DNA of 64,000 bases from Escherichia phage WPEC1. The notes under the pieces are model-generated. The model was given only the letters and a program-made list of their open reading frames with translations, searched no databases and had not been told where the DNA came from. This document shows, piece by piece, positions 34,693 through 42,548 of this stretch; within the stretch, counting starts at the first letter, position 1; each line of letters begins with the position of its first letter. A program made the position numbers and the translations under genes. The DNA is taken from the sequence record PV659873.1; one strand, given 5' to 3'.

Positions 34693-37600
34693 ATGGCAAC
34701 ATTCCCAACATATCCGGCAACGTCTCTTGAACAGGGCGTAGATCTGGTTATTTTCTCGTCTAACCAACTTCACGATGTTATTAATGGAAGTGCGACAGAA
34801 AGTATTGAAACAGAATCAGGGTTGATACCAACCCTTAGAAAAGCCCTTGTTGATAACTTCTTTTTTAAGAGTCCCTTGGATTGGGCGCAAGGCACTAATG
34901 AAACAGTTTTTAACCAACTTCGTTATTTTCAAAACGGAGTGTTGAGTGGTTATTACTATGCGCCTAATGCTACACTGGTAAACCCTATTCCTATGCAAGG
35001 TACTCCAGTAGGAGATAACAACTGGGTATTGTGGGGACTGAAGACAGAACAATTGGCAACAGAAGTAACCCCTTGGGTATATTCTGGGGCAACTGGTTAT
35101 GAGACAGTAATTAGTCCTCCTTACATCTTTGATAGTGCTATTGTTACAATCAATGGTGTTATTCAGGTTTTGGGGGAAGCTTTCCGCATAGAAGATAGTA
35201 AAATAATCTTATCTGAACCTTTGGGGCATGATCCTGCAACAGGACTGCCAAACAAGCTTTTTGCTTATATTGGTAAAATTGTAGCTTCCGCAGATACAGA
35301 TCCTAACCTAGAGAACCGTCTTGTTAGTTTAGAAACAAAAACTGAAAAACTGACAGAAAGCATGGATAAAGTTCCTCTGCAAACCATTGCTCGTAAATAT
35401 GGTTTGTTAGATGATGAAGTAGCATATGCTACAGTGGGACAGTCTTTAACAGGGATTAAAGCCCTGTATGATCCGGTAGCACAATCTTCCTACACATTAC
35501 CTCCTAACATTACAGGGACGTTAACATCTTTGTCTGTTTCTGGAGTAATGACTTATTCTGGTGGTTCTGTAGATCTTTCTGCACTAGCTGTAGAACGTGG
35601 ACAGTTTGTTCATTTGCCTACAAGCTTTGGTAATAACGTAACCTTGACAGCTAAAAACCAGACGATTGGACGTGGGGCTGGTCGGTATCGTTGGGCTGGA
35701 AGTTTACCAAAAAGCATTTTGGCTTCTGATACATTGGAGACAAGTGGAGGATTAGGTCCAAATGCATGGGTTCTGACCAATACAGAAGGTTTGTTAACAC
35801 CTCGTGGTGGAACTTATAACGACTTGTTTGATGTGGTTTACCTGTCAGAGTTTGCTAACAACACAACAACATATACAACACCAGAAGCAGCATTTCAAGC
35901 AGCTTTAACAGCAGCAAAAGCTTCCAAAAGCAAAATTCTTGATGCTTATGGTTGCGATATGACCTTTACCACTAGTTCATTTGATATCCAAGATATTACT
36001 TTACGTGGTGGTGTATTCCGTGGTCAACGTGACTATCGTGTTCAAAACGCAACAGTAGAAGGCACAACTTTCCGTAACGCTCGCGTTATGTATTGGGGCG
36101 GTGCTGTGCGAATGTTTGATTGTTTGTGGGACGGTGCTCCTCGCGCAGGGCAAGTTGGTAGCTTGGTATTCCAAGGCAACCCAATTACAGGTACTTTTGA
36201 AATTGATAACTGTACTTTTAAAAATGGTTTGTATGGTATCCTTCAGCAAGGAACAGGTGAACCAGTAACGCGTGGTGTCTTCCGCAACCTAACTTTCATG
36301 GATATGCAAGGGGATGCAATAGAACTGAACGTCATCAACAAACATTACGATGATGGTTGTGTGATTGAGAATATTTACCTGTCTAATATCGATGGGACTA
36401 ATGCTCCTATTCCTCTGTCCAACTGGGGTATCGGTATTGGTGTAGCGGGTAAAGGACCATATGGTTACGGAATTCCCGATGATCAATACTGTAAAAATAT
36501 TACGATTCGTAACGTTTTTGCAAAACGTTGCCGTCAGATTGTTCACGTAGAAGTTGGTCGTAATATCTCTATCGAAAACATTCATGGCGATCCAGATCAA
36601 ACTGTATCTGTTGGAACAGGTTTGGCAACTGGCGCAGTTGTAATGTACGGAAGTAAAGATTTTACAATTGATGGTGTTTACGGAGAGCCTAAAACAGACG
36701 GTAGCACACTCGCAAGTAATATCCGTATGATTTACTTAGAGTGGGGGACTAATCCAGTTCTAGATGAAGAGGGAAATCCTGTAGTTCCAGCACAGGGTAG
36801 ACCTTCAAACCCATGCTTTAACTATTCTGTTCGTAATATTCATACAAAAACAGGACGTGTCTTTGCAGGAGTTTCTGCTGGACCAGGTTATGAAAACAGA
36901 GTCAGCTTTGAAAATATTCGTTGTGCTGCATTGCAGTTATTCGGTGTAGCTTCTTGGCTTTCAATGTCTAACATCACCTGTAATATCTTTGATTGTGTTG
37001 GTCAACCTGAATCTGGCCCAGGAACATTTTATGATGGATTCTTCCGTAGAGAAAAATCTGTTCTTGAAATGGTTAACGTAAACTGCTATCCAGATGGTAA
37101 GACGATGGTTACAGGTCGTCCACAATGGAGTCGTTGTCGTTACTCTGATATTCATCGTGTCAACTGTAATGTTGAAGCTAATATGTATACCAATATCGCA
37201 GGTGGCATTGGAGCTATCGTAGGAACTACTGGTAAAGTTTATTACTTAGAGCCTAATCCTAGCCGAAACATTGATGGTATGCATTTCCCAACAGGGAAGG
37301 AGTTCGACAAAGGGGATATGATAGTTAAGGCAGATAATACGTTCTTCCTTGTAACTACAAGTGGAGCGTATATTCCAGATATCCCAGCTTTTGGAATCCG
37401 TGCAACATCAGCGGGAGACACTTTCTTGACGCAGAACTTGACTCCTAACGGGACAGCAACAAATGCTTCTTGGTTGTATCATTACCCTCTATCAGCAGGA
37501 ACACGTATCCGTATTCCTGGCGCGGGTGTAGACGGGGCGGATTTGGACACAGTTATTACTCGTGCACCTTATCAAGATAATGATACATGGACTAACCCAG

Positions 37601-42548: not shown

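Follow-up and report, generated by a model that had tools for sequence, protein, structure and literature searches.

The late tail operon of Escherichia phage WPEC1 ends with three large genes in series, and the question raised by this locus is whether their products are three distal fibres or spikes of a like kind, each standing alone on the virion, or proteins that differ in build and in assembly. The window comprises 64,000 nucleotides (PV659873.1). Compared with deposited genomes, the stretch has 100% identity with Escherichia phages WPEC2, WPEC4, and WPEC6 and about 93% with further Phapecoctavirus members (ukendt, ESCO5, and others); the phage is a Phapecoctavirus, one of the phAPEC8-like myophages of E. 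coli within the Stephanstirmvirinae. Some near-identical records are labeled "Campylobacter," "Pseudomonas," or "Acinetobacter," which we take as labeling within the same coliphage group, and a wider host range read from these labels was rejected. The three open reading frames of the original prediction proved exact, and they are listed here with the genes that precede them.

34693 to 37746, plus strand: P1, open reading frame of 1,017 aa with an ATG start and a Shine-Dalgarno sequence
37810 to 39834, plus strand: P2, open reading frame of 674 aa with an ATG start and a Shine-Dalgarno sequence
39876 to 42548, plus strand: P3, open reading frame of 890 aa with an ATG start and a Shine-Dalgarno sequence
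32757 to 34689, plus strand: upstream context, with a short tail fibre (343 aa), a fibre assembly chaperone (179 aa), and a small protein of 111 aa

The original prediction placed the three genes behind the baseplate genes, whereas directly upstream of them we find the genes for the short tail fibre, the chaperone, and the small protein, and the baseplate wedge genes are not immediate neighbors. The N terminus of the short fibre matches the short tail fibre of phiTE (9CUY_c, E value of 6e-8), and a Caudo_TAP match (3.5e-7) is found among the upstream genes. Gene order is syntenic with ukendt and with Paula/phi92: the upstream genes align with phi92 gp147 to gp149 and the locus with gp147 to gp151, P1 and P2 corresponding to gp150 and gp151 and P3 to a third, genus-variable gene. 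The region is best explained as the conserved distal part of the Phapecoctavirus adsorption (receptor-binding) gene cluster. P3, encoded on the strand of P1 and P2, closes the late tail operon, and the downstream genes lie on the minus strand. Three minus-strand open reading frames inside the genes (36001 to 36249, 36289 to 36600, and 39082 to 39417) are deemed mechanical and were discarded as unsupported. The explanation that we favor, with high confidence in it as a whole, is that of a Phapecoctavirus adsorption cluster in which P1 is a colanidase spike, P2 a trimeric fibre, and P3 an adhesin-like factor.

Each gene had also been predicted to possess its own terminator. A GC-rich hairpin followed by a U-tract does occur in the intergenic gap 3' of all three genes, the first of them being weak. 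The region-wide count of such hairpins equals the shuffle expectation, and for the predicted terminators only placement is informative.

37753 to 37775, plus strand: terminator-like hairpin after P1 (MFE of -16.7 kcal/mol, z of -1.7), weak and with its U-tract interrupted
39837 to 39856, plus strand: terminator-like hairpin after P2 (MFE of -14.5 kcal/mol, z of -2.7)
42551 to 42572, both strands: terminator-like hairpin, bidirectional, at the end of the late operon (MFE of -15.9 kcal/mol, z of -5.4)

According to sequence comparison and structural modeling, P1 is predicted to be a colanidase tailspike homologous to phi92 gp150, with the following parts.

34723 to 35073, plus strand: residues 11 to 127, conserved N-terminal baseplate-anchor domain, from a match to the phiTE long fibre
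35053 to 35292, plus strand: residues 121 to 200, putative T4 gp10-like/XD branching domain, from weak matches
35368 to 35802, plus strand: residues 226 to 370, tandem TD1/TD2 domains (Tail_spike_N), from Pfam and PDB matches
35965 to 37692, plus strand: residues 425 to 1000, right-handed beta-helix colanidase domain and C-terminal domain, from homology to 6E0V

The anchor matches residues 14 to 132 of the phiTE long tail fibre (9CUY_g, 2.6e-19), which are the portion modeled on the phiTE baseplate (PMC11972413). In the family alignment of P1 the invariant columns are concentrated at residues 5 to 113, and this N terminus is common to dozens of tailspikes with differing (other enzymatic) C termini. 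Behind the anchor, residues 121 to 178 weakly match a "tail adaptor protein" (7Y22_e, 3.5e-4), a K1 depolymerase (9K4A, 0.008), and the N terminus of CBA120 TSP2 (6W4Q residues 18 to 71, 0.062). The TD region matches CBA120 TSP1, TSP3, and TSP4 and G7C gp63.1 (1e-26 to 3e-30), and PF18668 (Tail_spike_N) is detected at residues 302 to 361 (2.4e-9). Residues 425 to 1000 are homologous to residues 95 to 623 of phi92 gp150 (PDB 6E0V; phmmer, 2e-78), in an alignment that spans nearly the full length and contains long conserved blocks of the beta-helix core, such as GDAIELNV and NWGIGIGVAG. The AF2 model (pLDDT of 73.5) matches 6E0V, "colanidase tailspike," at 2.5e-33 in Foldseek and also the tailspikes of Sf6, HK620, Det7, and CBA120 as well as PL6 lyases. 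The core of the domain (residues 502 to 662) is WcaM-like (NCBIfam, 1e-25), which likewise speaks for the colanidase reading. [quoted passage not shown] 25. The right-handed beta-helix that had been predicted for P1 is thus borne out by the homology and the model, with Pfam Beta_helix remaining under its threshold (E value of 0.013, 15.6 versus 25.9 bits), and the label "depolymerase-like" can be narrowed to colanidase homologue. P1 would be ordered as a phiTE-like anchor, a gp10/XD-like domain, CBA120-type TD1/TD2, and a gp150-like beta-helix glycosidase.

Along its entire length P2 shares 60% identity with Paula_0166, the equivalent of phi92 gp151, and it falls into PHROG 15437, "tail fiber." We divide it as follows.

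37843 to 38040, plus strand: residues 12 to 77, N-terminal TD-type domain (Tail_spike_N; Pfam PF18668, 1.2e-19)
38128 to 39267, plus strand: residues 107 to 486, three GKSAY-type modules, knob repeats, and four Gly-X-Y runs
39400 to 39465, plus strand: residues 531 to 552, foldon-like trimerization motif, IPEAPQDGLTYGRSDGNWIEIS
39481 to 39831, plus strand: residues 558 to 674, C-terminal tip domain, from phiTE fibre and PHROG matches

The TD domain matches tailspike N-terminal domains in the PDB (1.6e-13 to 2.4e-5), aligning with the second TD domain of CBA120 TSP1. It begins after 11 residues, and neither a separate anchor ahead of it nor a homologue of the P1 anchor was detected in P2. The TD domains of P1 and P2 are absent from the original prediction, which had described P2 by long collagen-like runs. 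The collagen-like character stands (Pfam Collagen, 1.5e-14, 53.9 versus a cut-off of 27.2 bits; similarity to an NCBIfam collagen-like adhesin is far below cut-off), but the runs are not long: four interrupted stretches of 6, 8, 10, and 11 triplets, at residues 210 to 227, 277 to 300, 323 to 352, and 454 to 486, amount to 105 residues or 16% of the protein. The foldon-like motif aligns locally with the T4 foldon sequence. It also matches fibritin/foldon chimeras (1V1H, 0.0027), and the Paula orthologue matches Fibritin_C (0.0011). The tip matches the C terminus of the phiTE fibre (9CUY_g residues 679 to 790, 7e-8) and positions 751 to 868 of PHROG 4549 (9e-40). P2 would be a trimeric fibre composed of a TD-type N terminus, a coiled coil, three repeats with short collagen-like triple-helix interruptions, and a foldon-like clamp.

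P3 is assigned to PHROG 11922, "tail protein," and its AF2 model has a mean pLDDT of 85. In build it is a modular adhesin rather than a classic trimeric fibre.

39924 to 41075, plus strand: residues ~17 to 400, RCC1-like beta-propeller, from Pfam, Foldseek, and PHROG
41076 to 41630, plus strand: residues ~401 to 585, tandem Big_2 Ig-like domains
41631 to 41960, plus strand: residues ~586 to 695, beta-sandwich linker, from DSSP strands in the model; the exchangeable cassette starts here
41961 to 42545, plus strand: residues ~696 to 890, seven BspA/DUF285-type leucine-rich repeats (LRRs) and a conserved C-terminal cap

The N-terminal propeller of about 400 aa, the largest domain of P3, had gone unnoticed in the original prediction. 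Pfam RCC1 is reached at 22.6 versus 21.7 bits, WD40_RLD is matched at 2e-11 but below its cut-off of 150 bits, and Foldseek returns UVR8, the HERC2 RLD, and RCC1 with E values down to 1.8e-13 and a target TM score of about 0.7. Residues 1 to 396 match PHROG 4219 (1.4e-32). A role in "chromosome condensation / DNA packaging," annotated on some phage RCC1-like proteins, was rejected as an inference from the name only. The Ig-like region was correctly foreseen as Big_2 type: Pfam Big_2 covers two stretches (3.7e-7, 30.4 versus 22.8 bits), is matched by all of the 24 P3 homologues, and the region is 65% identical to that of Paula_0165. P3 has no match in NCBIfam.

The BspA-type LRRs predicted at the C terminus of P3 are upheld indirectly. 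No match to Pfam LRR_5 is found at an E value of up to 0.1, and DUF285 stays below threshold (0.051, 13.8 versus 25 bits), so that among the four domains named in the original prediction Pfam confirmed Collagen and Big_2 but neither Beta_helix nor LRR_5. In a Foldseek search with the full model the propeller dominated and no direct match to an LRR fold appeared. What speaks for the assignment are seven F-x-G-C-x-x-L repeats (starting at residues 703, 731, 760, 787, 815, 847, and 873, with a spacing of 26 to 32 aa), the relatives, and a profile match to solved LRR structures. The C terminus has 13,234 relatives, of which those sampled carry DUF285, LRR_5, or LRR_8; DUF285 is matched in 7 of the 24 P3 homologues, down to 1e-42; and the family profile matches, in the PDB, LRRTM (2e-19), repebodies, VLRs, TpLRR (6MLX), and 4FS7/4GT6. 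The model shows one short strand per about 27 residues in this part. The remark that such repeats are unusual in phage fibres holds for cultured phages, since the LRR module is matched in only 58 of 50,697 phage records (tblastn), and a literature search for BspA-type LRRs in phage tail fibres yielded nothing relevant. The group of WPEC1 is not alone in having the LRR module, which is found among the tail genes of a crAss-like contig too. The homologues of P3 retain the N-terminal 66% and carry at least three different C termini, with a break in identity at about residue 585, and a propeller-less Justusliebigvirus protein ends in a sequence 98% identical to one of the alternative C termini. 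By these alignments, the C-terminal ~300 aa are a cassette exchanged among relatives and across genera, as expected for a receptor-binding domain.

How the three proteins act can be read in more than one way. The colanidase activity of P1 is inferred from a structural alignment with gp150 in which no more than about 30% of positions are identical. A binding-only, catalytically inactive spike, or one directed at a polysaccharide other than colanic acid, would agree with this low identity and with an NCBIfam WcaM match far below the equivalog cut-off; moreover, some Phapecoctavirus relatives encode elsewhere a second gp150-like spike of 804 aa, and such paralogues may differ in specificity. We nevertheless regard this as quite improbable, given the near-full-length gp150 alignment with its conserved core blocks and a beta-helix domain that, found in 254 phage records, shows at least 98% conservation among many isolates of Phapecoctavirus, as would fit a target that is itself conserved, e.g., colanic acid. 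More finely balanced is the assembly of P1 and P2. Since both carry CBA120-type assembly domains, they may form one branched unit: P2, having no baseplate anchor of its own, probably docks on another fibre protein, with the gp10/XD-like domain of P1 as the most plausible site, on the model of the branched complexes of CBA120 and G7C, and P1 presents anchor, XD-like domain, and TD1/TD2 in the order of the CBA120 scaffold spikes TSP4 and TSP2 (PMC11414711). The analogy is imperfect: the domain reported to contact XD3 in CBA120 is TD1 (PMC11414711), whereas the P2 domain resembles TD2. This last feature, together with the statement that receptor-binding proteins of the phi92 type are "each protruding the baseplate" (PMC11414711) and the three separate fibre densities per wedge in phi92, would suit the picture of the original prediction, i.e., three independent homotrimeric fibres or spikes mounted separately on the baseplate with no branched P1-P2 complex. 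This picture falls somewhat short of even chances in our estimation, considering that P2 opens almost directly with its TD domain and that P3 has no trimeric-fibre features whatever. In the 2026 cryo-electron microscopy study of phi92 neither gp150 nor gp151 could be fitted into the fibre II density, and any position assigned to the homologous P1 and P2 is accordingly tentative.

As for P3, a protein that does not bind a bacterial receptor is conceivable, either as a gut-adhering decoration of the virion (binding mucus or host glycoproteins, as proposed for the Ig-like Hoc) or as a nonvirion accessory protein. Propeller, Big_2, and BspA-type LRRs make up an architecture of bacterial surface adhesins, BACON and Mfa-like fimbrillin domains accompany the LRR relatives in their proteins, and P3 displays neither a trimerization motif nor a recognizable baseplate anchor; our literature search returned no virion proteome or structure for any Phapecoctavirus, and the rV5 proteomics paper makes no mention of a P3-like protein. 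Such a role is unlikely, in our view, for a gene that closes the late tail operon between the P2 terminator and the bidirectional one and that combines a conserved N terminus with swapped C termini, near-identical across genera, which is the usual pattern of receptor-binding proteins; a related LRR protein, besides, sits in the crAss-like tail module. RCC1-like proteins of PHROG 4219 have been detected by mass spectrometry in virions of the Vequintavirinae phage W70 (PMC11370258), which lends indirect support, by analogy, to a virion location of P3. A bolder reading, less likely than not, makes P3 the representative of an undescribed receptor-binding class with a monomeric RCC1-Ig scaffold and a swappable LRR cassette, of a family that crAss-like gut phages would use too, that recognizes a protein instead of a glycan; its ligand may lie on the bacterium (e.g., flagella or an outer membrane protein) or in gut mucus.

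Under the favored explanation, P1 would cut the colanic-acid slime layer and so let the virion gain the outer membrane, the P2 tip, homologous to that of the phiTE fibre, would bind a conserved surface glycan, and P3, with its propeller, paired Big_2 domains, beta-sandwich, and LRRs as listed above, would serve as an accessory, strain-specific attachment factor of the virion, with its last ~300 aa as the receptor-binding cassette; irreversible binding would be left to the upstream short tail fibre. To speak of three distal fibres or spikes makes the trio look more uniform than the adhesin-like build of P3 and the assembly domains of P1 and P2 suggest. The multireceptor adsorption apparatus proposed originally is the right general reading, in keeping with the phi92 synteny, but not a new one: the Stephanstirmvirinae are known for several co-expressed fibres and spikes, a "nanosized Swiss army knife" (PMC8594841, PMC10844046, PMC13450770). 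The trio consists of already catalogued host-recognition genes of a well-known E. coli phage group and is ordinary overall, P3 with its LRR end being the only member yet to be characterized. The locus sets the host range of Phapecoctavirus phages, which have been isolated repeatedly and, owing to their very broad host range, proposed for therapy and biocontrol. To this the domain maps add the scaffold-type assembly domains of P1, the anchorless P2, and the propeller-Ig-LRR adhesin P3 with its cross-genus exchange; the analysis settles no long-standing open question, and the cassette boundary in P3 could serve host-range engineering.

Among the closest known systems, phi92 (Justusliebigvirus) belongs to the same subfamily and shares the order of short fibre, chaperone, small protein, colanidase spike, fibre, and third gene, with gp150 homologous to the C terminus of P1 and gp151 orthologous to P2. 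It differs in several respects. The gp150 orthologue of the phi92-like phage Paula has 804 aa, compared with 1,017 aa in P1, and between the matched blocks about 70 residues in the gp150 crystal construct face about 223 in P1, the extra stretch holding the CBA120-type TD1/TD2 tandem. The third gene of Paula has the Big_2 tandem, without the RCC1 propeller and without LRRs, unlike P3, and phi92 carries the endosialidase gp143 in a slot that is empty in WPEC1. With CBA120 TSP1 to TSP4 (Ackermannviridae) and G7C gp63.1/gp66, P1 and P2 share the TD-type Tail_spike_N domains; the scaffold spikes show the order of anchor, XD-like domain, TD, and beta-helix seen in P1, and the docked spikes begin with a TD domain, like P2. 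However, the XD-like similarity of P1 is weak, WPEC1 belongs to a different family with a different baseplate, and P2 contains just one TD domain, of TD2-like type, with a collagen-like fibre body replacing the beta-helix. The long fibre of phiTE (Certrevirus; 9CUY) resembles P1 in its N-terminal baseplate-bound domain and P2 in its tip, but unites in one protein of 793 aa both ends that in WPEC1 are split over P1 and P2. P3 shares its repeats and its C-terminal cap with the BspA/TpLRR and DUF285 surface proteins of bacteria, the cap G-C-T-x-L-S/D-D-Y-x-x-I-P-x-x-W-K having Tyr at the first position and Tyr for Trp in P3; unlike those proteins, P3 falls under the Pfam thresholds and carries its LRR module as part of a phage protein that a tail operon encodes. 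Finally, the RCC1-like W70_237 to W70_239 found in purified virions are stand-alone propellers of 40 to 43 kDa encoded elsewhere in their genome, whereas P3 carries its propeller in one chain with Ig-like domains and LRRs and is encoded last in the tail operon.

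The three ORFs named here P1, P2 and P3 were reproduced exactly at the positions originally predicted, each starting with ATG and preceded by a Shine-Dalgarno-like sequence. They follow a run of tail and baseplate genes and are listed in gene order, together with the hairpin-plus-U sites in their downstream gaps:

Tail protein, 958 aa, first in this order
28312-30375, Calx-beta and NCTSP TIM-barrel protein, 687 aa
30368-30628, 86-aa protein
gp6-like wedge protein, then a second baseplate protein
Short tail fibre, 343 aa, N-terminus similar to the phiTE short fibre 9CUY_c (E 6e-8)
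Caudo_TAP chaperone
111-aa protein
34693-37746, + strand, P1, 1017 aa
37753-37775, hairpin and U site after P1, fold z-score -1.7, weak
37810-39834, + strand, P2, 674 aa
39837-39856, hairpin and U site after P2, fold z-score -2.7
39876-42548, + strand, P3, 890 aa
42551-42572, hairpin and U site after P3, bidirectional, fold z-score -5.4

An own terminator for each gene, as had been proposed, is thus predicted in all three gaps, the first being weak; since the 11 such sites in a 16-kb scan equal the shuffle expectation of 11.0, only their placement is meaningful. In the curated annotation of the phi92-like phage Paula, terminators likewise follow gp150 and the third gene. According to Paula's labels, which name the phi92 counterparts, the gene order in the window is collinear with phi92 gp141 to gp151. 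phi92 gp142, which carries the annotation of a possible glycosidase fibre, corresponds to the 687-aa protein, where Calx-beta and NCTSP_N are joined by a "non-contractile tail sheath protein" TIM-barrel domain (E 9e-79).

Over the 7.9-kb stretch with P1 to P3, identity is 100% with Escherichia phages WPEC2, WPEC4 and WPEC6 and 92 to 94% with about sixty further records, among them ukendt, tuntematon, ESCO5 and phAPEC8 relatives. Since related records are classified as Phapecoctavirus, subfamily Stephanstirmvirinae, the window belongs to an already known E. coli myophage of ~150 kb. Near-identical genomes are also filed under other hosts, as "Campylobacter phage B15", "Pseudomonas phage PsgM04F" and Acinetobacter and Klebsiella phages; a truly wider host range was rejected as the meaning of these names, which we take as host labelling or contamination issues. 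The P1 to P3 sequences had been deposited and annotated before, the labels in relatives being "colanic acid degradation protein", "tail fiber protein" and "tail protein", respectively. Several co-expressed fibres and spikes, a "nanosized Swiss army knife", are described for Stephanstirmvirinae, with enterobacterial common antigen and LPS core as proposed receptors on K-12 (PMC8594841, PMC10844046, PMC13450770). The original prediction of a multi-receptor adsorption apparatus, largely correct in its observations apart from the corrections made here, is therefore broadly right, though for this phage group it was established before; P3, with its propeller, Ig-like and LRR parts, is the sole member of the trio without earlier characterisation.

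The P3 protein is divided as follows:

Residues ~17-400, RCC1-like beta-propeller
Residues ~401-585, two Big_2 domains
Residues ~586-695, beta-sandwich
Residues ~696-890, LRR region

Pfam detects the Big_2 region that had been predicted, but the largest domain, the propeller (Pfam RCC1 and WD40_RLD), had been overlooked. In the AF2 model (pLDDT 85) this region matches UVR8, HERC2 and RCC1 by Foldseek, with E values down to 1.8e-13 and target TM of ~0.7. As to the predicted BspA-type LRRs, Pfam does not detect LRR_5 in P3 and reports DUF285 at just E 0.051, yet the LRR assignment stands by other routes. P3 contains seven F-x-G-C-x-x-L repeats spaced by 26 to 32 residues, and a search of 1.84 billion representatives gives 13,234 relatives of its LRR region, including many giant repeat proteins; those sampled carry Pfam DUF285, LRR_5 or LRR_8 beside BACON or Mfa-like fimbrillin domains. 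DUF285 matches, down to 1e-42, occur in 7 of 24 P3 homologues, and the family profile matches solved LRR proteins including LRRTM (2e-19), repebodies, VLRs, TpLRR and 4FS7/4GT6. The relatives conserve a C-terminal cap, G-C-T-x-L-S/D-D-Y-x-x-I-P-x-x-W-K, in which P3 has Tyr at the first position and Tyr for Trp.

Homologues of P3 retain its N-terminal two thirds and end in at least three C-terminal types, namely the LRR cassette of P3, a canonical DUF285 cassette or an unrelated module of ~300 aa, or have no C-terminal module. Identity profiles are mosaic: three homologues (P0002 to P0004) are 76 to 86% identical to P3 in the RCC1 part and 91% in the LRR part, while P0008 is 99% identical in the RCC1 part and unrelated at its C-terminus. 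The exchange concerns P3 residues ~586-890 (window 41631-42545) and positions 14457-15365 of locus L002. The alternative cassette, as carried by the Phapecoctavirus homologue P0009, recurs with 98% identity at the C-terminus of Paula_0165, the product of the third gene in a Justusliebigvirus; this protein has a Big_2 tandem 65% identical to that of P3 but lacks the propeller. A swap at residue ~585 is the pattern that would be expected for a receptor-binding domain. LRRs had been called unusual in phage fibres, and a tblastn search bears this out, with the cassette in only 58 of 50,697 cultured phage records, about 35 of them Phapecoctavirus-like and the others Klebsiella temperate, Listeria, Synechococcus and jumbo phages. 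At 3410-4219 of L003, a locus on a 97.9-kb crAss-like contig, lies a 269-aa relative (39% identity) whose gene gives an inexact translation of the query; it comes immediately behind a 1074-aa Phage_tail_C protein, with CrAss_Ring and crAss_MUZ genes downstream of it, which points to use of the LRR module in crAss-like tail modules too. Indirect support for P3 on the virion comes by analogy: residues 1-396 match PHROG 4219 (E 1.4e-32), and mass spectrometry of virions of W70, a Vequintavirinae phage, revealed three proteins of this PHROG. We found no Phapecoctavirus virion proteome in the literature.

For P1, the sole Pfam domain above threshold is Tail_spike_N (residues 302-361, E 2.4e-9), Beta_helix being sub-threshold (E 0.013). 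Despite this, the predicted right-handed beta-helix is deemed secure from alignment and model: the phi92 gp150 crystal structure 6E0V aligns to residues 425-1000 (E 2e-78), the AF2 model (pLDDT 73.5) retrieves the same "colanidase tailspike protein gp150" at 2.5e-33 and next the CBA120, Sf6, HK620 and Det7 tailspikes and PL6 lyases, and the colanic-acid protein WcaM is similar to the core at residues 502-662 (E 1e-25). Colanic acid hydrolysis is reported for phi92 gp150 in PMC13450770. Across several phage families, 254 records carry the domain. Towards the N-terminus, residues 121-178 are weakly similar to gp10/XD-type adaptor domains (E 3.5e-4 to 0.06), and residues 226-370 contain TD1 and TD2 in tandem, matching CBA120 TSP1-4 and G7C gp63.1 (E 1e-26 to 3e-30). 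The first ~200 residues are regarded as a virion-attachment module because dozens of metagenomic tailspikes share them with unrelated C-terminal enzymes.

P2 has Tail_spike_N at residues 12-77 (E 1.2e-19) and an above-threshold Pfam Collagen match, in agreement with the predicted collagen-like region; its runs, however, are not long, consisting of four short interrupted triple-helix segments of 6, 8, 10 and 11 Gly-X-Y triplets (105 residues, 16% of the protein) interspersed with three GKSAY-type modules and knob repeats. The motif IPEAPQDGLTYGRSDGNWIEIS (window 39400-39465, P2 residues 531-552) closely resembles the T4 fibritin foldon and is probably a trimerisation clamp directly ahead of the tip domain. 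Over its full length, P2 shares 60% identity with Paula_0166, the orthologue of phi92 gp151.

We propose that P1 would be held on the baseplate by residues 11-127 while its beta-helix would clear colanic acid. P2 starts with a TD domain and has no counterpart of the P1 anchor; it would probably dock on a different fibre protein, the XD-like domain of P1 being the most plausible site from the analogy to the branched complexes of CBA120 and G7C (PMC11414711), although the P2 domain is TD2-like rather than TD1-like and the XD-like matches in P1 are weak. The phiTE-like tip of P2 would be offered to a conserved glycan, P3 would act as an accessory adhesin, with the C-terminal cassette adjusting its specificity, and irreversible binding would fall to the short fibre. 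As a caveat to this scheme, a 2026 cryo-EM study of phi92 could fit neither gp150 nor gp151 into the fibre II density (PMC13450770).

Compared with ukendt, the window lacks 3.4 kb at 30361-30391, the junction of the 687-aa and 86-aa genes, where ukendt encodes a small tail protein and gp241, an 804-aa gp150-like tailspike that shares its N-terminal anchor with P1. Many relatives therefore have one more spike than the window phage. This hypervariable slot is the position of the phi92 endosialidase gp143, and at least 80% of ukendt's version occurs in just 2 of 156 matching phage records.

In phiTE, the long tail fibre (9CUY_g) is one protein, and its two ends fall on different proteins here, P1 and P2. 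Its residues 14-132, the part modelled on the phiTE baseplate (PMC11972413), match P1 residues 11-127 (window 34723-35073, E 2.6e-19), whereas its C-terminal tip matches P2 residues 558-674 (39481-39831, E 7e-8). This arrangement may go back to the splitting or recombination of a single ancestral fibre.
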